Positions 37,243-56,738 of a stretch of 64,000 nt of DNA are shown piece by piece. The translations under genes were made by a program, and so were the position numbers. Each line of letters begins with the position of its first letter. Position 1 is the first letter of the stretch. The stretch is taken from the NCBI GenBank assembly GCA_016125275.1, contig WGMB01000001.1:26079-90078 (forward strand), written 5' to 3'. The notes below the pieces were generated by a model. It worked only from the letters and a program-made list of their open reading frames with translations. It searched no databases and was not told the origin of the DNA. The DNA comes from Acidobacteriota bacterium. Its GTDB lineage: Bacteria > Acidobacteriota > Terriglobia > Bryobacterales > UBA6623.

Positions 37243-37269
37243 GTTATCGCTTGGCGCGGCGGGAAGTTG
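37243..37269 (-). promoter_or_regulatory. sigma28-like promoter copy 1 (CAACTT-N14-CGATAAC)
   Basis: Minus strand reads CAACTT-CCCGCCGCGCCAAG-CGATAAC, 51 nt upstream of ATG 37191. Confidence 0.8.
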
Positions 37270-37369
37270 CCCCCCTGCGAAGGGGAGCTTCGGCAATTCC
37301 CGAGAATTGGTATCGTATGGCTTGTCGGTTGGGCCGGAAGAAGTTGCTGCCGGACGCGGTGAGGTCACC

Positions 37370-38053
37370 TTGGACGCCCGCTTGATGACCTTGATCGAGA
37401 AGCATCGGCCTTACGCCCGCGCGATCGCGGCGGAGGTGCTGCGGAAGCTCCCTCCCCACGCGGAAAGGGACGAGCTGGAGGCCGCCGCGGACCTCGGACT
37501 GGTGGAGGCCGCGCAGGCCTACGACGCCTCGCGCGGCGTCCAGTTCAAGACCTTCTCCTATTACCGCATCCGCGGCGCGATTTACGATTCGATCCGGCGC
37601 GCGACTTGGCTGTCAAAGTCCGAGTACGACAAGGTGCGCTTCGAAGCCGCCGCCAACTCCTACATGGGCGACCAAGCCGAGGGCTCCGCGCCGGACGGCA
37701 CGGCGGAGCAGATGCTCGACTCGCTGGGCCGCGCCAGTGAGTCGCTGGCCGTCTGCTACTGGATGTCTCTCGAGGCCGAGGGGATGCCCTCGCCCGAAGA
37801 CCCCTCGCTCGACGCCGAGGGGCAGCTGCTCGAGGATGAGCAGAGCCGCCTGCTGCGGGCGGCGATCCAGAAGTTGCCCGAGAACCAGCGCGTGGTGCTG
37901 CAGGGCTACTACTTCGAGGGCAAGAAGTTCAACGAGGTCGCCGACGCCTTGAATCTGTCCAAGAGCAGGGTTTCGCGCATCCACGCCAAGGGCCTGGAGG
38001 CCCTGCGGGACGCCTTGACCGGCTCGCTCGCCGCCGCTCCGGCCGGATCGTGA
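37370..38053 (+). CDS. FliA/WhiG (sigma28)-like RNA polymerase sigma factor
   Basis: GLVEAAQAYDASRGVQFKTFSYYRIRGAIYDSIR (region 2) and LPENQRVVLQGYYFEG...VADALNLSKSRVSRIH (region 4). Start TTG 37370 or ATG 37385. Confidence 0.9.
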   Translation: MDARLMTLIEKHRPYARAIAAEVLRKLPPHAERDELEAAADLGLVEAAQAYDASRGVQFKTFSYYRIRGAIYDSIRRATWLSKSEYDKVRFEAAANSYMGDQAEGSAPDGTAEQMLDSLGRASESLAVCYWMSLEAEGMPSPEDPSLDAEGQLLEDEQSRLLRAAIQKLPENQRVVLQGYYFEGKKFNEVADALNLSKSRVSRIHAKGLEALRDALTGSLAAAPAGS

Positions 38054-38054
38054 G

Positions 38055-38081
38055 CAACTTTTTCGGCGGCGCGACGATAAC
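38055..38081 (+). promoter_or_regulatory. sigma28-like promoter copy 2
   Basis: CAACTT-TTTCGGCGGCGCGA-CGATAAC immediately after the sigma stop, 10 nt before ATG 38092. Confidence 0.8.
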
Positions 38082-38091
38082 TCCAGCGAAC

Positions 38092-38628
38092 ATGGCAGAC
38101 CCGGTCATTACTCGATCCATCACCTCGGGCGTCACGCCGAAGCCGACCCAGACCGAAGGGCCGGCCAAGGGACAGTCGTTCGAGCAGGTGCGCCAGAGCA
38201 TGGCGGAGAAGATGCAGTCAACGGCGCAGATGCCGCCCGAGGCCGCCGCTCCGACCGCGGAAGTGAAGAAGTCTCTGGCGACGGAGCTGCACAAGAAGCT
38301 CCAGAACAGCCAGATGAAGACGCCGCAGCAGGTCTTCGGTCCCGAGATGCAGGACCTCGGCGGTAAGATCAACGGTTTACGGGTCAAGGTCGAGAAGACG
38401 CCGAACACTCCGGAGCTGTCGCCGCTGCGAACCCGTCTCGAGAAACTCGAGTCGCAGTTTTCGCAGACCGGCGCCCGGCTGGAGAAGCTCACGTCCACCA
38501 ACGACCCCCGGGCCATGCTGCAGTTGCAGGTCGAGGTCCATCAGATGACCCAGAATTTCGAGATCGTCTCCAAGGTAGTGGAGCAGGTGAACAGTGGAGT
38601 CAAACAGATTATTCAAACCCAGGTTTGA
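38092..38628 (+). CDS. sctI: T3SS inner-rod protein, SctI-like
   Basis: C-terminal DPRAMLQLQ...FEIVSKVVEQVNSGVKQIIQTQV fits the YscI/HrpB2/PrgJ-type helix; directly upstream of sctJ. Confidence 0.7.
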   Translation: MADPVITRSITSGVTPKPTQTEGPAKGQSFEQVRQSMAEKMQSTAQMPPEAAAPTAEVKKSLATELHKKLQNSQMKTPQQVFGPEMQDLGGKINGLRVKVEKTPNTPELSPLRTRLEKLESQFSQTGARLEKLTSTNDPRAMLQLQVEVHQMTQNFEIVSKVVEQVNSGVKQIIQTQV

Positions 38629-39433
38629 TCCGGCGCGGCGTTGGGGCCTCGCCGTCGTCGCCCTCGCGGCCTTGGCTTCGACGGGTTGTTTGCGGCAGGA
38701 GCTCGTGAGCGGGCTCGACGAGCGCGAGTCGCAGGAGATCATCGTGCTGCTCGAGTCCTACGGGCTCGACGGCGTGCGCGAGATGGTCGCGCAGGAACGC
38801 GCCGAGCCGACTTGGACGGTGCTGGTCCGCGGTGGCGACCAGAACCGCGTGACGGCTTGGAAGGTCTTGCAGGAGAACGGTTTGCCGCGCGAGCGCGTGC
38901 AGGGCTTGAGCGACGTGTTCGCCGAGCAGGGCATGATTCCCACCGAGACCCAGGAGAAGGCCAAGATTCTGGTGGGCCTGTCGGGCGAGATGAGCCGCAC
39001 GCTGCGCTCGATCAAGGGAGTGGTGGACGCCCGGGTGCACGTGGTGCTGCCGGAGGACAATCCGCTGGTGGACGAAGAGCGGCGCGCCAAGCCCTCGGCT
39101 TCAGTGCTGATCCGCTACGCGGGCGACAAGCCGCCGATTGCCCAGGCTGACGTGCTGCGCTTGGTGGCGAAGGGCGTGGAAGGCTTGCAGGAGGACCAGA
39201 TCGCGGTGGTGTTCCACAAGGTGGAGCAGACGCCGATTGCGCAGTCGGACCTGGCCTGGGCGCCGACGACCGACGAGTTGCTGGTGGCGTCGCTGGCGCT
39301 GCTGGGCGTGCTGGGTCTGCTGAGCCTGATTCTGCTGGGCCGCCTGCGGGCCCAGACCGGGCGCGTGAAGCAGCTCGAGCAGTTGCAGCTCGCGGCGACC
39401 CAGCCCACGCGCACGGAGGGAGGTAGGGCCTGA
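38594..39433 (+). CDS. sctJ: T3SS inner-membrane ring lipoprotein SctJ
   Basis: Lipobox LASTGC, L.SGLDERESQEI, GLPR, GMIPT..QEK, IKGVVDARVHVVLPE, PSASVLI, C-terminal TM. At about 280 aa it is too short for FliF. Confidence 0.93.
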   Translation: MESNRLFKPRFDPARRWGLAVVALAALASTGCLRQELVSGLDERESQEIIVLLESYGLDGVREMVAQERAEPTWTVLVRGGDQNRVTAWKVLQENGLPRERVQGLSDVFAEQGMIPTETQEKAKILVGLSGEMSRTLRSIKGVVDARVHVVLPEDNPLVDEERRAKPSASVLIRYAGDKPPIAQADVLRLVAKGVEGLQEDQIAVVFHKVEQTPIAQSDLAWAPTTDELLVASLALLGVLGLLSLILLGRLRAQTGRVKQLEQLQLAATQPTRTEGGRA

Positions 39434-39720
39434 GCCCCCGTACGCTGGCTCTGGCGCTGGCCCAGCGCGGCGAAGACCGCCGGGAGGCGCTGCTGATGCG
39501 CCTGCCGGAGGATCGCCGCGAAGCTGTGCGGGCGGAGCTGGAGAGCCTTCCGGCCGACCCCGCCGCCGAGCTGCGCCGGTTGCGCGAGGCGGAGCTGGCC
39601 GAGCTGGAGCGGCGGCGGCGCGAGACCTGGGGCTCGGTGTGGGGACGACTGCCGCCGGCGTTGCGCGGCTGGGCCTGGAATCCGACGGTGAACGATGGCT
39701 GGACGAATCCTCAAGGGTAG
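39430..39720 (+). CDS. Small helical protein in the sctK position
   Basis: Fills the sctJ-sctL gap. In-frame CTG at 39430 overlaps the sctJ stop (CTGA) 5 nt after GGAGGT; alternative ATG 39496. Confidence 0.55.
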   Translation: MSPRTLALALAQRGEDRREALLMRLPEDRREAVRAELESLPADPAAELRRLREAELAELERRRRETWGSVWGRLPPALRGWAWNPTVNDGWTNPQG

Positions 39721-40315
39721 CTCGGAGACCGTCGGCGGAGACCCCCGGCTGGTCAAGCGCTCCGTCTACGAAAGCGGACGCAGCGCCGAGGAGATCCTGG
39801 AGCAGGCCCAGGCCGACGCCGCCGCCTTGCTGGAGAAGGCCGAGGCCGAGCGCGACGCCCTGTTCGAGGAGGCTCGCGAAGCCGGGCGCGCCGAAGGCTT
39901 GGAGCGCTGGAACGCCCTGATTCTGGAGGCCGCCCAGGCCCGCGACAAGGCTCTGGCCGAGGCCGAGACCGAGATTCTGCAACTGGCCGTGCACATCGCC
40001 GAGAAGATCCTCGGTGAGCAGCTCCGCCAGGACCCCGGGTTGACCGCCAGCATCGTCCGCGAAGCCTTGCGCAGCGCCCGGCGGGACAAGGACGTCACGC
40101 TGCGGGTGCATCCCGACGCCGCGGCCGCCGTCGAGTCGCGGCTGCACGAGCTGCGCGACGGCTCGCCGCAGGGGGCTCTGTTCAGCGTCCGCGCCGATCC
40201 GGCCGTGGCACCGGGCGGCTGCATCATCCGCACCGAATCCGGCTCGGTGGACGCCCAGCTCGAAAGCCAACTGCGCTGCATCGAAGAGCTGCTGCTGCGG
40301 GAGGCCCGGCGATGA
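39695..40315 (+). CDS. sctL: T3SS stator SctL (FliH family)
   Basis: [13 protein letters not shown] repeats, [37 protein letters not shown]. Confidence 0.92.
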
Positions 40316-41625
40316 GCGCGGGGCACAACCTCAGCCGCTTTCTGCGCGTGGTGGACCGCGCCACGCCGGTGGAGGTGCGCGGGCGGGTGAAGGAGGTCAT
40401 CGGCCTGCTGGTGCGCGCCAGCGTGCCGGAGACCTGGATCGGCGAGGTCTGCCTACTCTATTCCGGGCGCTCCAGCGAAGCCTTGCAGTCCGAGGTGGTG
40501 GGCTTTCAGGACGGCGACGCGCTGCTGATGCCGCTCGGCGACCTGCGCCACATCGGCCCGTCGAGCGAGGTGAAGCCGACCGGACGCAGCCTGACGATTC
40601 AGGCCGGCGACTGCCTGCTGGGCCGCGTGCTCGACGGGCTGGGGCGGCCGATGGACGACCTGGGGCCGCTGGAAGGCGCCGTCGAGTGGGAGGTCGAGCG
40701 CAATCCGCCGGACCCCATGCGGCGGCGCAGGGTGCTGGAACCGCTCTCCACCGGCGTGCGTTCGATCGACAGTCTGCTCACCTGCGGCGAAGGCCAGCGC
40801 GTGGGCCTGTTCGCCGCCGCCGGCGGCGGCAAGTCGACGCTGATGGGCATGATCGCCCGCAACACCGAGGCCGACATCAACGTGATTACGCTGGTGGGCG
40901 AGCGCGGCCGAGAGGTGCGGGACTTCTTGGACGAGAGTCTGGGTGAGGAGGGGCTGAAGCGTTCGGTGGTGGTCTGCGCCACCTCTGACCAGCCGTCGCT
41001 GGTGCGGCTCAAGGCGGCCTACGTCGGCACGGCGATCGCGGAGTATTTTCGGGACCAGGGCAAGAAGGTCCTGCTGATGATGGATTCGGTGACGCGTTTC
41101 GCCCGCGCCAAGCGCGAGATCGGCCTGGCGTGCGGCGAGCCGCCGGCGCGGCAGGGCTACACGCCGTCCGTGTTTACCGAGCTGCCACGGCTGCTGGAGC
41201 GCTCCGGTAACTCCTCGGACGGCTCGATCACGGCCTTCTATACGGTGCTGGTGGCCGGCGACGACATGAACGAGCCGGTGGCCGACGAAGTCCGCTCCAT
41301 CCTCGACGGCCACATCGTGCTCTCTCGCGCGCTGGCCGCTCAGGGCCACTACCCGGCCATCGACGTTTTGCAGTCGGTGAGCCGCGTAATGTCGGCCGTG
41401 GTCGGCAACGACCATCAGATGCAGGCGCGCAAGATGCGCCGGCTGATGGCGGCGTACGAGAAGCAGCGCGACCTGATCCTGCTCGGCGCCTACGAGTTCG
41501 GCAGCGACCGGGAGGTGGACGAGGCGATCGAGAAGATCGAGTCCATCCGCGGCTTCCTGCAGCAGGGCGTGATGGAGCCTTCGACGTTCCAGTCGATGCT
41601 CGATCAGTTCCAGACGGCGGTTTAG
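40312..41625 (+). CDS. sctN: T3SS ATPase SctN
   Basis: Walker [12 protein letters not shown] (YscN-type), [10 protein letters not shown], Walker [42 protein letters not shown]. Confidence 0.96.
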
Positions 41626-41627
41626 GC

Positions 41628-42116
41628 ATGGCGCGCTTCCGCTATCGCTTGCAGGCCGTCCTCGACCAGAAGAAGGAGGTGCGGGAGAGGGCTCAGGAGG
41701 AGCTCACCCGGTCGCTGCGGGCCCAGCAGGAGGCCGAAGAAATACTCGCCCAACTGCGCAACAAAGAGCAGGAGCTCCGCGATAAGAAGGCAGAGCTGAG
41801 AACCGAGATGGTGACCGTTCAAGCCAGCGCTCAGGAGTTGCGGAGGCGCCGGGACTACATCCAACGCGTGGGCGAGGAGCTCGACGCGGCCGGTGCGGAG
41901 GTGTTCGGGCAGCGCATCCTGGTGGACGAATGCGTCGAGAACGTGGACCGCGCGCGGCTGATTCTGGCCGACGCCATCCGCGAAGCCGAGGCGCTCGAGA
42001 AGCACCGCGAGAAGCAGGAAACCGAGTTCTACGCCGAGATCGAGCGCAAGGAAGCCCTGGAGCTCGACGAGGCGGCCACGCAGTCCTACCTCAGGAGGCG
42101 CGGCGATGCGAATTGA
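41628..42116 (+). CDS. sctO: T3SS stalk SctO (FliJ family)
   Basis: FRYRLQAVL start, coiled coil, ALEKHRE...E..ELDE end; follows sctN. Confidence 0.88.
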   Translation: MARFRYRLQAVLDQKKEVRERAQEELTRSLRAQQEAEEILAQLRNKEQELRDKKAELRTEMVTVQASAQELRRRRDYIQRVGEELDAAGAEVFGQRILVDECVENVDRARLILADAIREAEALEKHREKQETEFYAEIERKEALELDEAATQSYLRRRGDAN

Positions 42117-42888
42117 GCCCAAGGCCGCCAAGCCGCTGAAGGCGGAAGGCGATGCGGCGGCGAGCCCGTCGGAGGCGTCCACGGCGCCCGGGTCCAAGCA
42201 GGCCGGGTCCAAGCCGGGCTCGGATTTCCGCAGCGTTCTCGAAAAGGGCAGGGGAGAGTCGCCGCAGAAGCCGTTGGCACGCGGCAAAGGCGGCGCGGCC
42301 GGCAAGCCGCCTTCGCGCTTGGCGTCGAACGCCCCGCTCCCGGGCGGAGACCCGCGGGAGGGAGCGGCCTCCCGGCTAAAGCCGGAGGGCCCCGGCCGCA
42401 GAAAGCAAGAGGAACCGGCGCCGCCGACGGACTTGGCCCCCGAGGCGCTGGCGGCGCCGTTACGGAACCAGGCTGAGCAGGTCTCCGCCCCCGCTCCGGC
42501 CGCACCCGCGACTCCGGTCGAGCGCATCGCCGACGAGATCGTGATGATTTCGCGGCCCGACGGCTCCCGCGAGATTCAGGCGGAAGTGGACTCCAAGGTG
42601 ATGGCCGACCTGCGCATCTCGGTGACCGAGCGCGACGGCCGCCTGGAAGTGAAGCTGCTGACCGACACGGCGTCCACCCGGCGCGAGCTCGAGAAGGCCA
42701 TGCCGCAGCTCTCGGCGGCGTTGCAGGCGCGCAACTTGAATGTGTCGACGGTGCAGGTGGTTCCGCGGGCGCAGGCGGCGCTGTCGACGCCGGAGCGGCC
42801 GCAGGACTCCCGGCAGGGACGCCAGGGCGAAGGCGGCGGGCAGGGGCGCGGCGGCCGCGGCGACCGTGACGAGCGAGGCCGCCGATGA
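42106..42888 (+). CDS. sctP: Length-control/ruler protein SctP (FliK-like C-terminal domain)
   Basis: Disordered Pro/Ala/Lys N-half, compact C-domain (LRISVTERDGRLEVKLLTD...RRELEKAMPQLSAALQARNL), located between sctO and sctQ. Confidence 0.75.
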   Translation: MRIEPKAAKPLKAEGDAAASPSEASTAPGSKQAGSKPGSDFRSVLEKGRGESPQKPLARGKGGAAGKPPSRLASNAPLPGGDPREGAASRLKPEGPGRRKQEEPAPPTDLAPEALAAPLRNQAEQVSAPAPAAPATPVERIADEIVMISRPDGSREIQAEVDSKVMADLRISVTERDGRLEVKLLTDTASTRRELEKAMPQLSAALQARNLNVSTVQVVPRAQAALSTPERPQDSRQGRQGEGGGQGRGGRGDRDERGRR

Positions 42889-44294
42889 GTGCGACGGCCA
42901 CGCCGTTGAATCTGACGCAACTGGAGGGTTGGTCCAAGTCCGAAGCGGCGGCCTGGAACGCTCTGCTGGCGGCTCTGCCGGCTGACGACGCTTGGTCGAG
43001 CTGGCTGGAGGCCGTGGCCGCCGAGACGTTGTCGCGCCCGTCGGGCCGCCGTCCCAAGCTGACCATCTCCAAGGTGATCCAGAGCGACGAGCCGCCGGTG
43101 GTGCAGGCGATGGAGGGCGAGCGGGTGGTGCTGGGGCGCGACGCCGAGTGCGACGTGGTCCTGCCCGAAAAGGTCATCACCAAGCAGCACGCGGCGGTCT
43201 ACCTGGAAGACGGGCGCTACTGGCTGGAGGACCTGGGCAGCGCCATGGGGGTCTTCCGGCGCAACAAGAAGCTCGAGCCGCACATGCCGGTCGAGCTCAG
43301 CGAGCAGGACCAGTTCAGCATCTTCCCGTACAACTGCCGGTTCGAGATCGAGGCCGTGTGGGCGCCGGAACAGGACGTGGCGCTGGGGGCCGTGGAGACG
43401 AGGGTCCAGACCTGGGCGGACTTCGAGCAGGCCGGCGGGGCCGGACAGCTCGTGTTTCCGCTGTTCGTCCACCCAGCCGGCCGGGCTCTGTTCGTGGAGG
43501 TCGAGGCGGGGCTGGCGGAAGAGATCGTGACGGGATCGCTGCCGGCGCTGGGCGAGTCGGCCGAGGCCGCCGGGCTGCTGGAGGTGGACCGGGCCCTGCT
43601 GGAGGTCTGGCTGCTGACGCTGGCGGACCGCTTGGGAGACAGCCTCGAGGCCGACATGCAGTTGACGCTGGGGACGCGTCCCGGGCCGGAGACGGCTTGG
43701 CCGCTGCTGCGCGGCGTGACGGTTGAGACGAGCCTGCGGATTCGCGGCCGGGGCCGGACGCTGCGCTTGTTTTTGCCGTTTCGGACGCTGGAGCGGATGC
43801 GCTACGCGCCGTCGCTCCAAGGCGCCGCGCCGGAGCAGGTGAGCTGGCGCTGCCGCGTGACGATCGCCACCGAGCGGTTCGAGGTCGGCGAGCTCAGCCA
43901 CCTGGAACCCGGCGACGTGCTGCTGCCCGACATCGGCGTGACCCTGTGGCTGCCCGGCGAGCAGCGCGCCGGCTGGCGCTGCACGGCCGACGCCGGCTAC
44001 TCGAGCCTCGAAATCGGCGAATATTTTGAGACGGAGTTGGACGTGTCAGATCAAGGCCCTCAGGCGGAAAACCTCAGCGAGCTCCCCGTGGAGCTGCATG
44101 TCGTCGTCGGCGACAAGCGCCTGACCTTCGCGGAAGTGCAGCAGTTGCGGCCCGGCTCGGTGATCGACCTCGAGCGGGCGCCGGACGCCCCGGTGGAGCT
44201 GTGGGCCAACGGCGCTCGCGCCGGCCGCGGCGAGCTGGTGGAGATCGACGGGAAGTTGGGCGTGAAGGTGACGGAATGGTTGCGCAAACCCTAG
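42885..44294 (+). CDS. sctQ: C-ring protein SctQ with an inserted FHA domain
   Basis: C-terminal SpoA domains (L..LEPGDVLL; LPVELHVVVG...L.PGSVIDL...GELVEIDGKLGVKV). FHA at about aa 57-156 (LGRD..CDVVL...ITKQHA...LEDLGS.MG). Confidence 0.9.
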   Translation: MSATATPLNLTQLEGWSKSEAAAWNALLAALPADDAWSSWLEAVAAETLSRPSGRRPKLTISKVIQSDEPPVVQAMEGERVVLGRDAECDVVLPEKVITKQHAAVYLEDGRYWLEDLGSAMGVFRRNKKLEPHMPVELSEQDQFSIFPYNCRFEIEAVWAPEQDVALGAVETRVQTWADFEQAGGAGQLVFPLFVHPAGRALFVEVEAGLAEEIVTGSLPALGESAEAAGLLEVDRALLEVWLLTLADRLGDSLEADMQLTLGTRPGPETAWPLLRGVTVETSLRIRGRGRTLRLFLPFRTLERMRYAPSLQGAAPEQVSWRCRVTIATERFEVGELSHLEPGDVLLPDIGVTLWLPGEQRAGWRCTADAGYSSLEIGEYFETELDVSDQGPQAENLSELPVELHVVVGDKRLTFAEVQQLRPGSVIDLERAPDAPVELWANGARAGRGELVEIDGKLGVKVTEWLRKP

Positions 44295-44698
44295 TCCGGG
44301 CCCTGCCTTTGGCGTGGTTGCAGCTCGCCGACGCCGGCTCGGTCGGCTCGGAAGGATTCGTAGAGATCGTATGGTGGGACTACTTCAAGGTCTTATTGGT
44401 ATTGGCGGCGCTGGTGGCGGGGGCGTATGCGCTGGTGCGCTACGCCGGGCCGAGGGTTCCGCACGCGGCCGGCGGCGCGGGGCCGGTGAGGGTTTTGGGG
44501 CGCTATCCGCTGGAGCCGCGCAAGACGCTCTACCTGGTGAGGGTGGGCGAGCAGACGCTGCTGGTAGGGGCTGCGGAGGGCTCGCTGAGCCTCCTGCACA
44601 CCGTGCCGGAGGGGTCGATCGACTTGGCGGCGTTCGAGCGGCCGAAGGTCTCCGGGGCGTTCCTCGAGAAGTTGCGGGAGCTGCAGGCGCGCAAATGA
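44276..44698 (+). CDS. fliO: FliO-like export-gate assembly chaperone
   Basis: Single TM, then VRVLGRYPLEPRKTLYLVRVGEQTLLVGAAEGSLSLL, the FliO cytoplasmic pattern. Directly upstream of sctR. Start approximate. Confidence 0.8.
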   Translation: MVAQTLVRALPLAWLQLADAGSVGSEGFVEIVWWDYFKVLLVLAALVAGAYALVRYAGPRVPHAAGGAGPVRVLGRYPLEPRKTLYLVRVGEQTLLVGAAEGSLSLLHTVPEGSIDLAAFERPKVSGAFLEKLRELQARK

Positions 44699-45423: not shown

Positions 45424-45436
45424 GGAAAGGGTTGCC

Positions 45437-45703
45437 ATGGATTCAGAAACCGTCATTCGACTACTGCGGGAAGGCTTGCTGCTGATCGTGCTGGTCTCGG
45501 CCCCGCCGATGCTGGCTTCGCTGGTGGTGGGCCTGACGGTCAGCATCTTGCAGGCCACCACGCAGGTGCAGGAGCAGACGTTGAGCTTCGTGCCGAAGCT
45601 GCTGGCGATCTTCTTGACGCTGGCCGTGGCCGGGCCCTGGATGCTGGCGCAATTGGTGCACTTTACTGACGCCGTGATGTCCGCCATCGTGGAGGTCCGC
45701 TAG
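45437..45703 (+). CDS. sctS: T3SS export apparatus SctS (FliQ family)
   Basis: LQATTQVQEQTLSFVPKL signature, 88 aa. Confidence 0.95.
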   Translation: MDSETVIRLLREGLLLIVLVSAPPMLASLVVGLTVSILQATTQVQEQTLSFVPKLLAIFLTLAVAGPWMLAQLVHFTDAVMSAIVEVR

Positions 45704-45711
45704 GCAAGCCC

Positions 45712-46545
45712 GTGGACGAGTGGATCCCCACCCTGCGCGAGATCGCCCGTTCGCTGGGCCTCGGCGGCGACCCGGCGGCCTACCTGGCCGTGTTCGGGCT
45801 GGCGTTGGCGCGCCTGGTCACGGCGATTTCGCTGGCGCCCTTTCTGGGCGGCAAGAGCGTCCCCAACCAGGTGAAGGTGGGTTTGGCCGCCGCGATGACG
45901 ATTCTGCTGTTTCCGCTGCTCGATCCTGTGGCCGAGGCGCCGCCGCCGACGTTGCTGTGGGTGGCGCTGCTGGTGAAGGAGGTCCTGATCGGCGCCCTGC
46001 TGGGGCTGCTGTCGCAGTTGGTCTTCTTCGCCATCCAGATGGGCGGAGCGCTGATCGACACGCAGCGCGGCATGAACCAGTTCAGCTTTTTCGCGCCGCA
46101 GCTCCAGGGCAATACCTCCGCGCTGGGGCTGCTGCAGTTCCAGGCCGCCCTGGTGGTCTTTCTGGCGCTCGACGGCCATTTGGTCTTTCTGCAAGCCCTG
46201 GCGGACAGCTTCCAGACCACGCCGGTGAACGCCTTTCCGCCGGTGGTGGCCGACGGCATGGCCTTCGTCGACCGGCTGGCGCGCTTCTCGGCGGACCTGT
46301 TCCTGATCGCCCTGCAACTGGCGGCGCCGGTGATGGCGGCGCTGTTCCTGATCGACGCCTCGTTCGGGGCGCTGGGCAAGATCGCGCCGCAGATGCCTGT
46401 CCACGGCGAAGCGCATACGCTCAAGAGCCTGGTCGGCCTGCTGATCGTGTTTCTGGCCTTGCCGCTGCTGATCCAGCAGTTCGGCGTCTCGATGGTGGAC
46501 ATGCTGGCCGGCGTGAAGGAAGTGGTGCGGAGGCTGTCGGCATGA
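45712..46545 (+). CDS. sctT: T3SS export apparatus SctT (FliR family)
   Basis: KEVLIGALLG, GALIDTQRG, LALDGHL, LAAPV, LGKIAPQM. Confidence 0.93.
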   Translation: MDEWIPTLREIARSLGLGGDPAAYLAVFGLALARLVTAISLAPFLGGKSVPNQVKVGLAAAMTILLFPLLDPVAEAPPPTLLWVALLVKEVLIGALLGLLSQLVFFAIQMGGALIDTQRGMNQFSFFAPQLQGNTSALGLLQFQAALVVFLALDGHLVFLQALADSFQTTPVNAFPPVVADGMAFVDRLARFSADLFLIALQLAAPVMAALFLIDASFGALGKIAPQMPVHGEAHTLKSLVGLLIVFLALPLLIQQFGVSMVDMLAGVKEVVRRLSA

Positions 46546-47609
46546 GCGGCCAGAAGACGGAGCAGCCGACTCCGAAAAAGCTCCAGGACGCGCGCAAGAA
46601 GGGCCAGGTCCCCAAGAGCCAGGACCTCACCAACGCCTTCCTGTTCATGACCGCCGCCGGAACGCTGGGGATGATCGGCGCGAGCTTGGTGGAGCGGCTC
46701 GAAGGGCTGATCCTGAGCTTTCTGGACGAGAGGACCTTCCAGGGAGACGCGCCGCCGTCGGAGCTGTTGTCGAGGGCCGGCGAGGCTTTCTGGACGGTGA
46801 TTCTGGCGCCGCTGCCGGTGCTGGCCGGCATGGCCGCGGTCTCACTGCTGATCGGCTTCGTGCAGGTGCGCGGGCTGTTCGCGCCCGAGGCCATCAAGCC
46901 CGACATCAAGAAGCTCAACCCGCTCGACGGCTTCAAGAACATCTTTGCCAAGCCCAAGACCTACATCGAGCTCGGCAAGAACCTGCTCAAGTTCGCCGTG
47001 GTGCTGGGGATCGTGTACGCGAACGTCAAGTCGATCCTGCCGGAGCTGCTGCTGACGCCCCGGGCGCGGCCCGAACAGGTTTTGCCGCTGGTCGGCGACC
47101 TGCTCAGCGACCTGCTGCTGCAGATCGGCACGTTCTTCCTGGCGCTGGGCGCGGCGGACTTCATCCTGCAGCAGAAGCTCCATCTCAAGGAGCTGATGAT
47201 GACCAAGGACGAGGTGAAGCGCGAGTTCAAGTCCGACGAGGGCGACCCGCTCATCAAGGGCCAGCGGCAACAGCTCCACCACGACCTGCTCAGCGAGGGC
47301 TCCATCGCAGAGACCGCCAAGGCCGACGTGGTGGTCGTCAACCCGACCCACCTGGCCGTGGCGCTGCGCTACGTGGAGGCCACGATGTCGGCGCCGAGGG
47401 TGACGGCCAAAGGGCAGGACGAGCGCGCCAAGGAGATTCTGAAGCTGGCTCGGCGTCACGACGTGCCCATTCTGCGCAACATCCCCTTGGCGCGCGGACT
47501 CATCAAGATCGAGATCGGCCACGAGGTGCCCGAAGAGCTCTACGCGGCGGTGGCCGAGGTGCTCAACTGGGTCTACCAACTGCGGCAGGCCGAAGCGGAG
47601 GAAGCATGA
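46542..47609 (+). CDS. sctU: T3SS substrate-switch protein SctU (FlhB family)
   Basis: KTEQPTPKKLQDARKKGQV, MTKDEVKREFKSDEGDP, autocleavage NPTH, VAEVL. Start ATG 46542. Confidence 0.96.
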   Translation: MSGQKTEQPTPKKLQDARKKGQVPKSQDLTNAFLFMTAAGTLGMIGASLVERLEGLILSFLDERTFQGDAPPSELLSRAGEAFWTVILAPLPVLAGMAAVSLLIGFVQVRGLFAPEAIKPDIKKLNPLDGFKNIFAKPKTYIELGKNLLKFAVVLGIVYANVKSILPELLLTPRARPEQVLPLVGDLLSDLLLQIGTFFLALGAADFILQQKLHLKELMMTKDEVKREFKSDEGDPLIKGQRQQLHHDLLSEGSIAETAKADVVVVNPTHLAVALRYVEATMSAPRVTAKGQDERAKEILKLARRHDVPILRNIPLARGLIKIEIGHEVPEELYAAVAEVLNWVYQLRQAEAEEA

Positions 47610-48016
47610 GGATTCTGGACGCATTGAACCCGATACAAGCCGGCGGAGCGCGCTCGCGCGAGCTGGCGAGGCAGGACGGCGTCTCCTTCCGCGAGCGCAT
47701 GAAGAAGCTCGCGCCGCTGCGGGCGGCGGGCTGGCGGCAGTTGCTGCGGCTGAACCGGGAGACGCAGGTCGACCCGTGGATCGCGCCGCCCACCGCGCCG
47801 CCGGGCTACGGAGTCTCCGATGCGGCTTCGGAGCGAGCGCAGATCCGCGGGATCGTCGACCAGCGGCTGCCCGCGCTGGCCGAGTACGCCGCCCCGGACG
47901 GCCTGCAACAGCGCAAGGACGCCGTCGGCAAGATGCTCGATCTGCTCGACCGGCAGCAGCAGGCCCAGGACCAGATCGCGGCGCGTGGCGCGCGGGCGGC
48001 GGCGCAGCACGGGTAG
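47606..48016 (+). CDS. Hypothetical T3SS-associated protein (possibly SctX-like)
   Basis: Translationally coupled to sctU (ATGA), 136 aa, C-terminal amphipathic helix, followed by a TPR gene. Confidence 0.6.
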   Translation: MRILDALNPIQAGGARSRELARQDGVSFRERMKKLAPLRAAGWRQLLRLNRETQVDPWIAPPTAPPGYGVSDAASERAQIRGIVDQRLPALAEYAAPDGLQQRKDAVGKMLDLLDRQQQAQDQIAARGARAAAQHG

Positions 48017-48022
48017 GACGGC

Positions 48023-48433
48023 ATGAAAGAGTTCGGATTCAGCGACAGCGATTTCTACGCCATAGCCCGGCGGGCCTATGAGCTCAGCCTGCAAGGCGCC
48101 TACGAGCCGGCGGCGACGCTGCTGGAGGGGCTGCGCGCAATCGACCCTTTGGATCGCCACAGTCTGCTATCGCTGGCCGCGGTGCGGATGAAGCAGGGGC
48201 GCGCGTCCGAGTCAGCGGCGATGCTCGAGGCCTGGCTGGCGGAGAGACCCCGGGACGAGCAGCCCCGGGCCCTGCTGATCGAGGCTCTGCTGGAGCTCGG
48301 ACGCGTTCCCCAGGCTCACGCCGAGCGTTTGCGCCTGGAGGCCGGCGGCGGCGTCCTGTCGCAACGGCTGGAATTACGGCTGCGGGCGGCCGAGCAGAGT
48401 GCGGATCGGACGCTGAGCCCGAGGCGTCGGTGA
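48023..48433 (+). CDS. TPR protein (SctY- or SycD-like chaperone)
   Basis: FYAIARRAYELSLQGAYEPAATLLEGL..IDP TPR pattern, 136 aa. Confidence 0.7.
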   Translation: MKEFGFSDSDFYAIARRAYELSLQGAYEPAATLLEGLRAIDPLDRHSLLSLAAVRMKQGRASESAAMLEAWLAERPRDEQPRALLIEALLELGRVPQAHAERLRLEAGGGVLSQRLELRLRAAEQSADRTLSPRRR

Positions 48434-48452
48434 TTTTTTTGAGGAGTCGGGT

Positions 48453-48479
48453 CAACTTCATCTCTCGGGGAGCGATAAC
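48453..48479 (+). promoter_or_regulatory. sigma28-like promoter copy 3
   Basis: CAACTT-CATCTCTCGGGGAG-CGATAAC, 81 nt upstream of ATG 48561. Confidence 0.8.
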
Positions 48480-48560
48480 TCGGGCGTAAGTCAGGGAACA
48501 AAGAAAAACCCCGGCGCAAGAGTTTCGGAGAGACAGTCAGCAGGCAGCAAACAGGAGGAA

Positions 48561-49733
48561 ATGAAAATGAATCTCAACCCTTTGAAGTCGATGATCCAGG
48601 TCGTGACCGCCCCGATGGGGCCGCTGGGCGGCGTGGTCGCCAACGTGTTGGGGGGATTGCTCGAAGCCGGCGCAAAGGGCAAGCAGCAGCTGACGGCTCT
48701 GCAGGCGCAGTATCCGAAGGCCTCGGGTTTTACGGGTGGACAGCAGACCGCTTCGCGGCCGCAACCGTTCTCGATCAACGTCATTCAAGTCACCGTCAAC
48801 CCGATGGACAACTTGCAGAAGGCCCCCGGCGCCGGCGCGCTGCAAAGCTTCGGCAAGGTCGGCGAAGTGGGCAACGACTCGCAGTGGGGCCAGTTCGCCA
48901 ACCAGGCCAACGCCCGCATCACCGGCAACGACAAGTCCTTCAACTTCAACGGGACCAACCCCTGGCTGGGCGGCGGCGACAAGAGCGACATGGCGGCCGT
49001 GGGCTGGGCGCTGCAGAAGAACGACAAGGTGAAGTTCAACTCCGACACCAAGCAGTTCTTCGTGACCAACGCCGACGGCTCGACCAAGAACGTGGCTTCG
49101 CTCGATGAGGTGAAGGCCCAGATCGCCAAGAGCGGCGGCGCGAACCCGAACAACGGCGCGGCCTACAACGCGGTCGGCTCGTTCCTCGACGGCCGGGTCG
49201 GCCAGGCCCAGGCGCAGTCCGCCAGCCAGCAGCCGCAGGGCGCCGAGGACATCATCAAGGCCCTCTCGGAGCTGTTGCAGAAGCTGCTGTCGGCGCTGAC
49301 CGGCCAGGGCTCCGCCGCCTCCGGCGCTGCCAGCGGCTCGTCGGCCCCCGCGTCCACCGGCGGAACCGGCTCGAGCGGCTCGGTCTCGGCCCCGGCGGCG
49401 ACCTCCAGCTCCCCCGCGGCGAGCGGCACGGGCTCGGCGTCCGGCTCCGGCGACGTGGCCTCCTCCGGCGCCTACGAGCCCGGCCAGGGTCTGCTCAGCG
49501 GCGTGAGCTCCTCGATGGATTCGGCGGTCTCCGCCATCGGCTCGAAGGTCGACAGCATGATGGACCAGGCCGAGAAGCTGATGATGTCCGACAAGCCCTC
49601 GGACCAGATGAAGGCCCAGCGGCTGATGCAGCAGGCCAACCGCATCCAGGAGATGTTCTCGAAGATGATGGAGGACATCCAGAAGAGGTTCAGCGCCGCC
49701 CTCGGCCGCGCCGGCTACCAGAAGGCCCAGTAA
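48561..49733 (+). CDS. Probable abundant T3SS-secreted protein (Cys-free, Gly/Ser-rich, needle-like C-terminal helix)
   Basis: SD CAGGAGG, own promoter, very biased codons, S/G/A linker, C-terminal QRLMQQANRIQEMFSKMM, adjacent class II-type chaperone. Confidence 0.7.
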   Translation: MKMNLNPLKSMIQVVTAPMGPLGGVVANVLGGLLEAGAKGKQQLTALQAQYPKASGFTGGQQTASRPQPFSINVIQVTVNPMDNLQKAPGAGALQSFGKVGEVGNDSQWGQFANQANARITGNDKSFNFNGTNPWLGGGDKSDMAAVGWALQKNDKVKFNSDTKQFFVTNADGSTKNVASLDEVKAQIAKSGGANPNNGAAYNAVGSFLDGRVGQAQAQSASQQPQGAEDIIKALSELLQKLLSALTGQGSAASGAASGSSAPASTGGTGSSGSVSAPAATSSSPAASGTGSASGSGDVASSGAYEPGQGLLSGVSSSMDSAVSAIGSKVDSMMDQAEKLMMSDKPSDQMKAQRLMQQANRIQEMFSKMMEDIQKRFSAALGRAGYQKAQ

Positions 49734-49747
49734 GGAAATCTCCAGTC

Positions 49748-49776
49748 GGGTCGGCCGCCTCCTCCGCGGCCGACCC
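49748..49776 (+). other. Perfect 11-bp stem-loop (mRNA stability element or leaky terminator)
   Basis: GGGTCGGCCGC-CTCCTCC-GCGGCCGACCC, 14 nt after the stop at 49733. No U-tract. Confidence 0.6.
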
Positions 49777-49832
49777 AAGAGTTTCACCAGACAACCGAGA
49801 CAAAGAGCAAGAAGACGGGAGACAGATTCAAA

Positions 49833-50324
49833 ATGCCGAACGAAACCGCAGTGACCGATGTGACTCTGGACCAGATCCTCGACGGCGAAGCGACGATGAA
49901 CGACATCTTCGGCTTCAGCGACTTGCAGATCCAGTCCATCGCCGTGCTGGGCTTCCAAGCCTACGAGCAGGGCCGCAACGACGAGGCGCGCATCCTGTTC
50001 GAGGGCCTCACCGCGCTGGACAGCAAGTCCTACTACGGCTACGCCGGCCTCGGCGTGCTGGCCCTGGTGGAGGATGACGTCGACGCCGCCGTCGACTACC
50101 TGCGCCAGGCGGCCGAGCGCACCTCCGGCGACGCGGCCGTCTACGCCAACCTGGGCGAGGCTCTGTTCCGCCAGGGCAAGGTGGAGGAAGCCGCCGACGC
50201 TTTCCAGAAAGCGATCGAGCTCGATCCGGAAGGCAAGGACCCGGGCGCCAACCGTGCCCGGGCCATGATGTACGGCGTCAGCGTCGTGCTCGAAGAAGCC
50301 GCCAAGGCGATGGAGCAGGAGTAG
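49833..50324 (+). CDS. SycD/LcrH-like (class II) TPR chaperone
   Basis: Acidic, 163 aa. GEATMNDIFGFSDLQIQSIAVLGFQAYEQGRNDEARILFEGL..LD..YYGYAGLG, three TPRs. Confidence 0.82.
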   Translation: MPNETAVTDVTLDQILDGEATMNDIFGFSDLQIQSIAVLGFQAYEQGRNDEARILFEGLTALDSKSYYGYAGLGVLALVEDDVDAAVDYLRQAAERTSGDAAVYANLGEALFRQGKVEEAADAFQKAIELDPEGKDPGANRARAMMYGVSVVLEEAAKAMEQE

Positions 50325-50344
50325 TGGCCGGGCGGGCCGGGGCA

Positions 50345-50362
50345 GGGCGGCGCGAGCCGCCC
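50345..50362 (+). other. GNRA-capped hairpin between chaperone and sctV
   Basis: GGGCGGC-GCGA-GCCGCCC within a longer GC-rich imperfect stem. Confidence 0.4.
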
Positions 50363-50416
50363 CGGCCCCGCTCCCGCCGATGGCGCGCAGCGGCAATCGG
50401 GTAACCTGGAGAGCTT

Positions 50417-52531
50417 GTGATCGAGGATCTGAAGAAGCAGTTGACCGAGATGCTGGCCCAATTGAGGGCCGGCAATATTGCTTTGGTGCTCACGCAGTCG
50501 GCTGACGTCATCCTGGTGATCGCCGTCGCGGCGATGGTCGGCCTGATGATCGTCCCGCTGCCGACGTTTCTGCTCGACATCTTCCTGACGGTCAACATCA
50601 CCGTCGCCCTGGTCGTGCTGATGGTCTCGGTCTACGTGAAGGAAGGACCGCAGATCGCCTCGTACCCGACCCTGCTGCTGATCACCACGCTGTACCGGCT
50701 GGCGCTGGATATCTCGACCACGCGCCTGATTCTGCTGCAGGCCGACGCCGGCGAGGTGGTCTACTCGTTCGGCAACTTCGTGGTGCAGGGCAATTTCGTC
50801 GTCGGCGCGGTCATCTTCCTGATCATCACGCTGGTGCAGTTCCTGGTGATCACCAAGGGCGCCGAGCGCGTCGCGGAAGTCGCCGCGCGCTTCACCTTGG
50901 ACGCCATGCCGGGCAAGCAGATGTCGATCGACGCGGACATGCGCGCCGGCACCATCAGCTTTGAGCAGGCCCGCAAGCGGCGCGAAGCGCTGGCGCGGGA
51001 ATCGCAGTTCTACGGCGCCATGGACGGCGCCATGAAGTTCGTCAAGGGCGACGCCATCGCCGGCATCATCATCGTGCTCATCAACATCATCGCCGGACTG
51101 ATCATCGGCGTGATGCAGTTGGGCATGGAGGTCGGCGAGGCCGTGCAGGTCTACTCGGTGCTGACCATCGGCTCCGGCTTGGTGTCGCAGATTCCGGCGC
51201 TGCTGATCGCCATCTCAGCCGGTCTGGTGACGACGCGCGTGGCCTCCGAGCACGAGGATTCGAACCTGGGCAAGGATGTGGCCCGGCAACTGCTCTCGCA
51301 GCCCAAGGCGATCGCCATCGCCTCCGGCCTGTTGCTGGTGCTGGCGATCACGCCGGGGCTGCCGTTCATCCCGTTCGTGCTGATGGCGGCCGCCACCGGG
51401 GCGATCGGCTACAACCTGATCCGGACGGCGCCGGTGGGCGGCGAGGGCGACGACGAGGACTCCGCGCTGGAGGCCGCCAAGGAGCCGGAGATTCGGCCCA
51501 CCGCCGCGCTGGCGCTGCAAGTGGGCTCGGAGCTCGAGCGCCACGTGGATCCCTCCACGCCGGAGGGCGAGCAGTTTCGGCAGTTGCTGGTGCAGGTGCG
51601 GCACGCCTTGTATCTGGAGACTGGCGTGATCCTGCCGCCGGCGCAAGTGGTGGTGCAGCCGGGCCTGGCTCCGAACGCCTATCAGATCTGGGCGCACGAG
51701 ATTCCGCTGGCTTCGGGCGAGATCCGCGCCGACGCGGTGCTGATCAGCGGCGGCGCCTCCGACGTGTTTCTCTACGGGATTCGCGGCGAGGAGACGCGCA
51801 ATCCGGCCACCGGGCGGCCGGCGCTGTGGGCGCATCCGTCGATGCGCGAGAGGGCCGTGGCCGCCAACTTGGAGTCCTGGACGCCGGGCGAAGCGCTGGT
51901 GCTGCACCTGACGCACTTCTTGCGCGAGCACGCCGCGGAGTTCCTGGGGCCGCAAGAGGTCCAGTGGATGACCGACAAGCTGCGCCAGATGTATCCGACG
52001 CTGGTGGAGGAGGTCACGCCGAAGCCGGTTTCATTGCAGGCGCTGACCCAGGTGTTGCAGCGGCTGGCCGCCGAAAAGGTCTCGATCCGCGACCTGAAGA
52101 TGATCTTCGAGGCGTTGTCGTCGGCCGGCCAAACCGACGGCGACCCGGCCCGGCTGACCGAGCGCGTGCGTTACGCGCTGCGGCGCCGCATCTGCTACTC
52201 GCTGTCTGCCGGCAAGCCCCTGCTGCACGTCTACCAGCTCTCGCCAGATCTCGAGGACGCCTTCCGGGACTCCATCCGGGAGTCCTCGGGCGGCGCCTAC
52301 CTGGCGATGGACGAGGCCAGCATCCGGGCCTTCAGCAAGGCCGCCCAGCGCATGTTCGGCAACCTGCCGGCCACCGCGCAGACGCCCGTCATCCTCACCG
52401 GAGAGGACGTGCGCCCGTTCGTGCGCCAGATCCTCTGGCACGATTTTCCTGAAGCCGCCGTGCTGAGCTACGACCAGCTCACCGCCGACATCAACATCGT
52501 TCCGTTGGGAACGCTCGAGGCCGCCGCCTAG
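50417..52531 (+). CDS. sctV: T3SS export gate SctV (FlhA family)
   Basis: ITKGAERVAEVAARFTLDAMPGKQMSIDADMRAG, FYGAMDGAMKFVKGDAIAG, LVSQIPALL, EKVSIRDL, VLSY. Confidence 0.97.
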   Translation: MIEDLKKQLTEMLAQLRAGNIALVLTQSADVILVIAVAAMVGLMIVPLPTFLLDIFLTVNITVALVVLMVSVYVKEGPQIASYPTLLLITTLYRLALDISTTRLILLQADAGEVVYSFGNFVVQGNFVVGAVIFLIITLVQFLVITKGAERVAEVAARFTLDAMPGKQMSIDADMRAGTISFEQARKRREALARESQFYGAMDGAMKFVKGDAIAGIIIVLINIIAGLIIGVMQLGMEVGEAVQVYSVLTIGSGLVSQIPALLIAISAGLVTTRVASEHEDSNLGKDVARQLLSQPKAIAIASGLLLVLAITPGLPFIPFVLMAAATGAIGYNLIRTAPVGGEGDDEDSALEAAKEPEIRPTAALALQVGSELERHVDPSTPEGEQFRQLLVQVRHALYLETGVILPPAQVVVQPGLAPNAYQIWAHEIPLASGEIRADAVLISGGASDVFLYGIRGEETRNPATGRPALWAHPSMRERAVAANLESWTPGEALVLHLTHFLREHAAEFLGPQEVQWMTDKLRQMYPTLVEEVTPKPVSLQALTQVLQRLAAEKVSIRDLKMIFEALSSAGQTDGDPARLTERVRYALRRRICYSLSAGKPLLHVYQLSPDLEDAFRDSIRESSGGAYLAMDEASIRAFSKAAQRMFGNLPATAQTPVILTGEDVRPFVRQILWHDFPEAAVLSYDQLTADINIVPLGTLEAAA

Positions 52532-52544
52532 GAGTACCGCAGAC

Positions 52545-52817
52545 ATGTCCAAACCGAACACCCCCGCCAAGGCCGTCGAAAGCGCCGAAGACGTTTCCTG
52601 GCGCTCCTTCCCGACGCTCGAGAAAGTCTTCAGCTCGGACCTGGAAGGCTTCTACGCCCGGGTGCAGGAGACCTGCGGCGAGCTCAACGCCATCATCGAA
52701 GGCTCGGAGAACCCGCGCGAGGCCGCCCGCGCCCGCAGCGCCATGGCGGCTTACGGCAAGACGCTCGAGCTGTTCCACGAGATCCAGAGCGAAATGGACA
52801 AGGCCGGCGCTCGCTAG
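52545..52817 (+). CDS. Small helical hypothetical protein (possible YscE-like needle co-chaperone)
   Basis: SD AGGAG, 90 aa, two predicted helices, upstream of the needle-like gene. Confidence 0.6.
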   Translation: MSKPNTPAKAVESAEDVSWRSFPTLEKVFSSDLEGFYARVQETCGELNAIIEGSENPREAARARSAMAAYGKTLELFHEIQSEMDKAGAR

Positions 52818-52823
52818 AGACGG

Positions 52824-52850
52824 CAACTTTTTCGCCGGTCCGGCGATAAC
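52824..52850 (+). promoter_or_regulatory. sigma28-like promoter copy 4
   Basis: CAACTT-TTTCGCCGGTCCGG-CGATAAC, 54 nt upstream of ATG 52905. Confidence 0.8.
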
Positions 52851-53261: not shown

Positions 53262-53272
53262 GCGAGGCGAAT

Positions 53273-53680: not shown

Positions 53681-53705
53681 TGAACCGTCAGCGAGTGCTA
53701 AGACG

Positions 53706-54041: not shown

Positions 54042-54048
54042 AGCCGAA

Positions 54049-56221: not shown

Positions 56222-56237
56222 ACGAGGTTCAAGAGCC

Positions 56238-56705: not shown

Positions 56706-56738
56706 AGGGAGCCCGCAGCCATCCACAAGGAGATCGCC

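Follow-up and report, generated by a model that had tools for sequence, protein, structure and literature searches.

Four exact copies of a promoter-like motif, CAACTT-N14-CGATAAC, lie in a 64,000-nucleotide stretch of DNA from an Acidobacteriota bacterium (Bryobacterales; assembly GCA_016125275.1, contig WGMB01000001.1; C3:26079-90078 of the assembly), which we call the window, and each of them stands ahead of genes of a non-flagellar type III secretion system (T3SS) or of a gene adjoining it. We propose that these sites, S1 to S4, are promoters read by a FliA-like sigma factor encoded in the same locus at 37385-38053, and we put the probability of this reading at about 0.75. The locus sigma is favoured as the reader because flagellar and chemotaxis genes elsewhere in the genome have classical sigma-28-type sites, because two genomes that lack a canonical FliA keep both the sigma and the motif, because the recognition-helix residues of the locus sigma differ from those of canonical FliA, and because the residue at the position of R97 in Pseudomonas aeruginosa FliA covaries with the base directly 5' of CGATAA. 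A first-pass annotation of the window had already named this sigma as the reader; the comparisons reported here, above all the co-occurrence of the motif with one clade of sigma factors, lend that proposal support.

The motif in the window and in the genome

A pattern scan of the window finds CAACTT-N14-CGATAAC exactly four times, against none (mean 0.00) in 100 dinucleotide-preserving shuffles. A script scan of the whole assembly (7,553,324 bases in 20 contigs, 67% G+C) returns the same four matches and none further, where a hand calculation from base composition at 67% G+C leads one to expect about 0.03 per genome. Dropping the final C adds a single genomic site, at C14:296720. The first-pass annotation had listed the four copies as intergenic, correctly oriented and 10-81 nucleotides (nt) before a start codon, and had suggested the genome-wide scan as a check; the copies, their orientation and their gaps to the next start codon, counted from the last base of the motif, are all borne out (Table 1), as is their intergenic position under the gene calls used here, and the exact motif proves to be limited to the locus. 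S1 occupies the divergent gap that separates a gene for a 270-amino-acid (aa) protein from the sigma gene, while S3 begins 20 nt past the stop of a TPR gene and S4 begins 7 nt past the stop of a 90-aa open reading frame (ORF). The base 5' of CAACTT is G in three of the four sites (GCAACTT) and T in S3 (TCAACTT). Spacers and flanks are dissimilar from site to site, so that the four are not copies of a repeat element.

How far the definition can be loosened was judged against controls. Scored as GCAACTT-N14/15-CGATAA, the genome holds four matches at 13/13 bases (S1, S2, S4 and the C14 site) against none in the reversed-sequence control, and seven against three at 12/13 or better; at 11/13 or better the genome (32) and the control (33) give nothing but noise. 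The shorter pattern CAAC-N16/17-CGATAA occurs 12 times genome-wide, against 1-14 times for decoy patterns. Within this genome we rely only on full-strength sites and do not trust the looser definitions.

Two side observations concern single positions. The TPR gene overlaps at its end with a terminator-like hairpin and its T run, 25 nt 5' of S3, which would fit a separate S3 transcript; the terminator scan of the window found 9 against 10.0 expected, which is not above chance, this hairpin included. A looser match, GCAACAA-N15-CGATAAG, lies inside the coding sequence of sctO and is kept in the closest relative (L046, near 7593); it may simply reflect conserved codons.

Conservation in related loci

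Orthologues of the locus sigma occur in two of 40 close relatives and in six of 400 other sampled genomes of the phylum (E <=1e-35), and the public records that it matches bear labels such as Solibacteraceae, Terriglobales and Bryobacterales. Ten orthologues were aligned and used as a query, which hit at least 591 stretches; the analysis covered the top 80 loci (1,356,984 bases). These carry the labels Acidobacteriota, Myxococcota, Deltaproteobacteria/UBA10199, Planctomycetota and others, and at least two T3SS core genes stand beside the sigma gene in 73 of them; the wider set of loci read spans 43-67% G+C. Sites agreeing at 11 or more of 13 bases number 134 over the 80 loci, compared with 20 in reversed and 25 in shuffled sequence, and 43 of the 134 precede a sctI-like gene and 16 precede sctR. 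Of the 80 loci, 44 have the motif where the sigma gene ends (at least 11/14 bases of GCAACTT-N-CGATAAC).

The individual positions are conserved as well. Where longer stretches were read (G023, G037, G442, G441 and G439, whose sigmas are 45-56% identical to that of the window), the positions of S2, S3 and S4 recur with unrelated spacers. Sites are found at the orthologous position of S3 in L046, L047, G442 and G439, at that of S4, between the orthologues of the 90-aa ORF and of a 118-aa gene, in L047, G442, G441 and G439, and at an S1-like divergent position near the sigma gene in L046 and G441. GCAAC-N16/17-CGATAA gives 11-24 matches in five other genomes, against 0-6 in the backwards control, and these cluster on the T3SS contig. 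The conservation in related loci that the first-pass annotation had asked after is thus present, with the same two boxes at the same operon starts; conserved boxes, a free spacer, a fixed orientation and positions at operon starts together make a promoter-like pattern. In 26 of the 80 loci (among L082-L120, L048 and L049) the sigma gene ends on the TAA of CGATAA, with the next ATG 10-14 nt further on, which would place the promoter of the next operon within the sigma's last codons. The window differs, its sigma ending at a TGA just ahead of the motif.

Some lineages vary the scheme. The 16 sites that precede sctR are placed in the final part of FHA-sctQ, and a site ahead of sctU occurs in some loci. 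Both are missing from the window, and lineages differ accordingly in how many promoters the main operon contains. In loci labelled UBA10199 or Deltaproteobacteria (L150, L154, L157, L159, L128) the box 3' of the sigma gene reads GAAACTT-N16-CGATAAG, with a -35 element closer to TAAA, a spacer two bases longer and the helix Arg retained; the GAAACTT -35 box also occurs in loci labelled Myxococcota.

Comparison with sigma-28 promoters

The fliC promoter of P. aeruginosa has its -35 element, TCTAAAG, at -36 to -30 and GCCGATAA at -15 to -8 (PMC12784957). The -10 core CGATAA is present in all four sites of the window and, when the sequences are aligned on it, GCAA replaces TAAA at an identical gap of 15 nt; all four sites read (G/T)CAA-N15-NNCGATAA, and the sigma-28 geometry claimed in the first-pass annotation holds against this reference. 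On the -35 element itself the sites fail to match sigma-28, since the positions of TAAA hold GCAA in three of them and TCAA in the other. The extended -10 'GC' is missing too, the two bases 5' of CGATAA being AG, GA, AG and GG.

Classical sites are nevertheless present in the same genome. CTAAAG-N15-GCCGATAA precedes a FlgM-family gene, and sites of the form (C)TAAAG or CTAAG-N15-GCCGATA(A/T) also stand before CheY-like, cheA and rod-like genes (Table 1). Judged by their sequence, these are a second, separate promoter class of the genome. Its flagellar system includes a second FHIPEP gene, on C14, which adjoins a canonical FliA (235.8 bits), and flagellin genes on C18; a further FliA-family gene (212.9 bits) lies on C8. 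The genome-wide scan found no GCAACTT-type site at flagellar genes.

The locus-encoded sigma factor

The locus sigma has the Pfam domains Sigma70_r2 and Sigma70_r4. Its best NCBIfam model is TIGR02479 (FliA_WhiG), which it matches over model positions 1-223 with 123.5 bits, below the cut-off of 189.6, and its best solved relatives are FliA chains. The full FliA model is aligned, the middle region included, and the architecture is not that of the extracytoplasmic function (ECF) sigmas, which have sigma-2 and sigma-4 only. In a quick maximum-likelihood tree, with RpoD-like sigmas as outgroup and canonical reference FliA drawn from acidobacteria only, one branch (SH-aLRT 94) sets off the 86 clade rows and another (95) the seven canonical FliA. 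By this tree the locus sigma is a member of a distinct FliA-derived clade, and the clade appears to be genetically tied to secretin-less non-flagellar T3SS loci.

The residues that distinguish the clade lie in the recognition helix. In the open complex of P. aeruginosa sigma-28, two residues of the sigma-4.2 helix, Q228 and S224, touch the -35 element TCTAAAG; the contacts of Q228 are base-specific, and its replacement by Ala (Q228A) strongly lowers transcription. R97 reads the extended -10 'GC' (PMC12784957). We mapped the equivalent residues by alignment to P. aeruginosa FliA, with a numbering offset of +5 that was checked on D66, Y76, I79, R97 and R101. The column of Q228 holds R in 85/85 clade members, one further row having a gap, and Q in 7/7 canonical acidobacterial FliA; the column two residues before S224 holds K or R in 85/85 clade members and E in six of the seven canonical proteins. 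The sigma of the window has R at the first of these positions, K at the second and K at the position of R97. This last position covaries with the promoter: sigmas with R there have C directly 5' of CGATAA (-14) in 14 of 15 sites and those with K in 24 of 62, though a Fisher p of 1e-4 is too favourable, the loci being related and not phylogenetically independent. In the window, whose sigma is of the K type, the bases at this position are G, A, G and G. The FlgM (anti-sigma) family has a single match in the genome, the flagellar gene on C18, and none in the locus, where no anti-sigma candidate came to light.

Which factor reads the sites

The CGATAA core and the spacing of S1-S4 are of sigma-28 type, and the genome possesses a full flagellar system, with a FliA beside flhA and a second FliA-family gene, so that cross-recognition of the four sites by a canonical FliA/WhiG sigma is possible. 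If such a sigma were the actual reader, secretion and the flagellar programme would be coupled, and the targets of the locus sigma would lie elsewhere. This we consider distinctly improbable: at flagellar and chemotaxis genes the boxes are TAAAG or CTAAG with GCCGATA(A/T), not GCAAC, and no GCAACTT-type site was found at the flagellar genes; the locus sigma occurs in just two of the 40 close relatives, whereas FliA paralogues occur in most; and G097 and G195, which have no FliA above the family cut-off and whose sole FHIPEP gene is that of the T3SS, still carry the sigma together with motif sites (three in L056, one in L060). The same points bear on a shared arrangement, in which flagellar FliA would provide a basal level that the locus sigma amplifies. 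The core is common to both kinds of sigma, sigma-28 promoters tolerate some variation at -35, and the GAAACTT box of the UBA10199- and Myxococcota-labelled loci is nearer to TAAA, all of which speaks for such sharing; the invariant Q-to-R and E-to-K/R helix changes argue for a separate specificity, and we regard it as unlikely.

Were the boxes the binding site of an activator or repressor instead of the promoter itself, the position of S2, just 10 nt from a start codon and odd for a promoter, would find an explanation. Yet the site is asymmetric and strictly oriented to the downstream gene, its short boxes are 14-15 nt apart and its -10 box is identical to the sigma-28 core; it is the sigma gene and no transcription-factor gene that is conserved in the loci; and the 26 loci in which the TAA of CGATAA ends the sigma, with an ATG 10-14 nt on, fit the promoter of a near-leaderless mRNA. 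A transcription-factor site is accordingly very improbable. The small number of sites is all that favours a chance match or functionless copies of a dispersed repeat, which the empty shuffles, the expectation of some 0.03 per genome, the differing spacers and flanks and the conservation of position in distant genomes of 43-67% G+C render scarcely credible.

Several points weigh against the locus sigma as the reader. The two canonical FliA/WhiG sigmas of the genome share the CGATAA -10 preference. L060, from a genome without canonical FliA, has one site only and none directly after the sigma gene, and at S2 the 10-nt gap is too short for a transcript begun there to carry a ribosome-binding site. 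The scoring rule was built from the window's own motif, which makes the box frequencies in related loci partly circular, and these loci are kin, so that counts overstate their independence. Finally, the helix residues were mapped by alignment to a single cryo-EM structure, in which Q228 contacts -36/-35 and not the exact bases that differ; hence the link from residue to base is one that we infer. With these points taken into account, we still infer that S1-S4 are transcription starts read by this particular sigma.

A model of the regulon

On the reading of S1-S4 as promoters of the locus sigma, that sigma would retain a sigma-28-like -10 element (CGATAA) and the sigma-28 spacing; its -35 specificity would have changed from TAAA to GCAAC, and the extended -10 'GC' would no longer be needed. 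When present, the sigma would activate four units at one tier, together with at least one unlinked orphan gene on C14. S2 would drive the operon of the export apparatus and sorting platform, S3 the sctV unit with a 390-aa protein, S4 a small needle- or pilin-like protein and its TPR partner, and S1 the divergent 270-aa gene. As the sigma gene has no motif promoter of its own, sigma expression would be the master switch. By analogy with the fliC promoter, transcription would start about 8 nt after CGATAA, which would leave S2 a leader of 3-5 nt and a near-leaderless mRNA; read-through from the sigma gene into the S2 operon would be an alternative source of translation of the first gene. In many lineages a promoter built into the last codons of the sigma gene may feed a near-leaderless first gene.

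A broader evolutionary reading is conceivable, although we hold it tentatively and think it rather doubtful in its full extent. The clade would stem from a flagellar FliA that was carried along when the export apparatus was first recruited for secretion, and would have been co-inherited with a secretin-less, early-type T3SS in Acidobacteriota, Myxococcota, UBA10199-like bacteria and others. Re-tuned by the E-to-K/R and Q-to-R changes to an orthogonal GCAAC-N16-CGATAA, it would run the whole machine and its substrates as a single-tier regulon. If this were true, the motif would serve to find secreted effectors across the genomes of uncultured, possibly predatory, soil bacteria.

Control of the sigma gene

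No site of this kind stands ahead of the sigma gene in the window, as the first-pass annotation had noted. The higher-tier activator that it proposed on this ground is conjectural for this genome and gains some ground from related loci: promoters of sigma-54 type (YTGGC-N8/9-TGCW) are found upstream of the sigma gene in nine of 78, none of them acidobacterial. Reversed and opposite-strand controls gave none, and the density within the loci themselves leads one to expect about 1.3. Higher-tier input would, on these nine loci, exist in some lineages. In the window, a sigma-54-like string, TGGTATCGTATGGCT, has the wrong spacing and was not counted. A generic sigma-70 scan found one site against 1.1 expected and did not identify the promoter of the sigma gene, and the intergenic regions between the 270-aa gene and the sigma gene in the window and in the closest relative gave no meaningful alignment.

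One genus (L057, L058, L059) has the sigma gene without T3SS genes within 20 kb. In all three loci GCAACAT-N14-CGATAAC precedes a gene for an SLT lytic transglycosylase that lies directly upstream of the sigma gene, and in this genus the sigma may be autoregulated.

The type III secretion locus

The locus comprises, by Pfam assignment, the genes of a non-flagellar T3SS. The core genes sctJ, L, N, Q, R, S, T, U and V are all found, on matches to YscJ_FliF, FliH/T3SS_SCTL, ATP-synt_ab with T3SS_ATPase_C, FliMN_C, FliP, Bac_export_3, Bac_export_1, Bac_export_2 and FHIPEP. The S2 operon runs from a sctI/F-like gene (178 aa) through sctJ, a small ORF, sctL, sctN, sctO, a sctP-like gene, an FHA-sctQ fusion, sctR, sctS, sctT and sctU to a 136-aa ORF and a TPR gene. 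No match to the secretin (sctC) family PF00263 occurs in the window, the nearest being a weak match at C3:129719.

Table 1. Coordinates of the sites, genes and related features. Positions are those of the window unless a contig (C) or locus (L) is named.
Feature	Position	Strand	Remarks
Ser/Thr protein kinase gene	34502..36340	-	Pfam Pkinase; adjoins the locus; without motif
270-aa gene behind S1	36379..37191	-	no family (Pfam, NCBIfam); orthologue in the closest relative only
S1	37243..37269	-	GCAACTT-N14-CGATAAC; faces the 270-aa gene, ATG 37191, gap 51 nt
FliA-like sigma gene	37385..38053	+	222 aa from ATG 37385; TTG 37370 a possible earlier start
S2	38055..38081	+	starts 2 nt past the sigma stop; 10 nt to ATG 38092 of the sctI/F-like first gene
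S2 operon	38092..48433	+	Pfam matches; order recurs in related loci
Looser match inside sctO	41758..41786	+	GCAACAA-N15-CGATAAG
FHA-SctQ fusion	42885..44294	+	
Terminator-like hairpin	48409..48428	+	
S3	48453..48479	+	TCAACTT variant; 81 nt to ATG 48561 of the 390-aa gene
S3 unit	48561..52817	+	390-aa protein (no family), TPR protein (163 aa), sctV (FHIPEP), 90-aa ORF
S4	52824..52850	+	54 nt to ATG 52905 of the 118-aa gene
S4 unit	52905..54543	+	118-aa protein, TPR protein (135 aa), small ORF, FHA/YscD-N-like protein (164 aa)
FHA/YscD-N-like gene	54049..54543	+	
TadE/TadG-like pilin genes	54956..57170	+	no motif site ahead
Weaker site	C3:94952	-	GCAACAA-N14-CGATAAC
Fifth full-strength site and orphan gene	C14:296719-298163 (L074:70-1517)		20 nt before ATG of a 466-aa protein
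Site before SLT gene	L057:18736-19971	-	same in L058, L059
Classical sigma-28-type sites	C18:110426; C14:1731856; C12:317527; C9:172855	-; +; +; +	loci L067, L070, L071, L072
Sigma-54-type promoters, e.g. TTGGCATAAGAAGTGCA	L128, L135, L147, L148, L150, L154, L155, L156, L159		110-208 nt upstream of the sigma gene

The products of the S1, S3 and S4 genes other than those assigned above have no Pfam or NCBIfam match above the cut-offs. The 178-aa protein matches T3SS_basalb_I and T3SS_needle_F at E ~1e-3 only, below their cut-offs; for the 118-aa protein Atlas offered needle (0.87) and HrpA (0.82), leads that stay under 0.9, and on this weak basis the protein may be needle- or pilin-like, while Atlas gave nothing useful for the 390-aa protein. 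Comparison by hhalign of the sctI/F-like, 118-aa and 390-aa families gave probabilities of 12-29%, over C-terminal helices. The motif had been proposed to drive the export operon together with filament-like genes; the export-apparatus operon and small secreted-protein-like genes do lie behind the sites, and 'filament-like' is too firm a term for the S3 and S4 genes, for which the leads are weak.

Beyond the motif-bearing units, a Ser/Thr protein kinase gene adjoins the locus, and kinase matches near the sigma gene also occur in L046, L048, G442, G441 and G439. Two FHA-domain proteins, the SctQ fusion and the FHA/YscD-N-like protein, are encoded inside the locus, which suggests phospho-threonine control of the sorting platform, with the kinase as a possible input to the FHA-domain parts. 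Immediately 3' of the T3SS genes come TadE/TadG-like pilin genes.

Sites outside the locus

The four sites had been taken to define the regulon. The four units of the locus stand, and the set is incomplete, for a fifth full-strength site of GCAACTT type, GGCAACTT-N14-CGATAAG, precedes an orphan gene on C14. Its 466-aa product has a Pro/Ala-rich N-terminus and no Pfam family, finds no match in four other T3SS-bearing genomes (G023, G037, G097, G195) and is a candidate secreted substrate of the T3SS. The weaker site on C3 precedes a gene for a TonB-dependent-receptor-like protein.

Relation to known systems

Flagellar FliA and its class 3 promoters (TAAA-N15-GCCGATAA) are the closest parallel, as FliA is both the best family of the locus sigma and the source of its solved relatives, the CGATAA core and the spacing agree, and the sigma gene adjoins type III export genes. 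The locus differs in its GCAAC -35 box, in the loss of the extended -10 'GC', in a score below the family cut-off and in the R for Q228 and K for E of its sigma. Unlike flagellar FliA, moreover, the locus sigma is placed to drive the export apparatus as well and not late genes only, and there is no FlgM-family gene in the locus.

Among non-flagellar systems, HrpL of plant pathogens and BtrS of Bordetella are ECF sigmas encoded with the T3SS genes that they drive, and the hrp box reads GGAACC-N15/16-CCACNNA. They share with the present case a dedicated alternative sigma, encoded with the secretion system, and a promoter box that marks structural and effector genes genome-wide; they are group 4 (ECF) sigmas with other boxes, whereas the locus sigma is of group 3 and FliA-derived. 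The GCAAC box resembles ECF promoters in the AAC of its -35 element. Chlamydia trachomatis also has a FliA-family sigma alongside a non-flagellar T3SS. There, however, by a CRISPR interference study, the sigma-28 regulon consists of two genes, hctB and tsp, and the T3SS genes are mostly sigma-54-dependent (PMC10597470), while here the FliA-like sigma is positioned to drive the whole T3SS.

The 'needleless' T3SS* of Myxococcus xanthus works with the Kil Tad-like pilus, and the word 'sigma' is absent from the available portion of that paper (PMC12075869). The likeness lies in the locus having no secretin and adjoining TadE/TadG-like genes, and in Myxococcota-labelled records that carry the sigma clade beside T3SS genes; the difference is that the locus has small SctF/SctI-like candidates and may not be needleless. 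A scan with a Myxococcota-labelled sigma returned four close records of metagenome-assembled genomes and six distant ones, none from a named Myxococcus. In Desulfovibrio vulgaris, a plasmid-borne T3SS has sigma-54 and an enhancer-binding protein with a predicted direct action on the T3SS operons, and the accessible text mentions no FliA-type sigma (PMC4641369). This is again an alternative sigma over a T3SS outside the classical pathogens, and sigma-54-type sites occur in nine of the 78 related loci, but in D. vulgaris the predicted action of sigma-54 on the T3SS operons is direct.

To our knowledge, T3SS beyond the proteobacterial pathogens and the chlamydiae are almost unstudied. A 2012 survey places non-flagellar systems in Chlamydiae, Proteobacteria and Verrucomicrobia only (PMC3459982). 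Among papers open without subscription, we found no account of a FliA-like sigma in, or driving, a non-flagellar T3SS of Acidobacteriota or Myxococcota. The arrangement described here appears to be a secretion-system-dedicated alternative sigma that is FliA-derived and has its own promoter class.

Significance

A sigma factor and its probable promoter can here be paired from sequence alone, and the pairing holds in at least 80 loci from several phyla. The regulatory model that follows has a single sigma and a single promoter class with no internal tiers, unlike the flagellar cascade. The locus also offers a natural case in which two helix residues accompany a changed -35 box while a paralogue of the old specificity coexists in the same cell. 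For uncultured soil bacteria the motif lists candidate secreted proteins, one orphan in this genome and a dozen or more sites in others, and the arrangement may bear on how the regulation of the injectisome descended from that of the flagellum.

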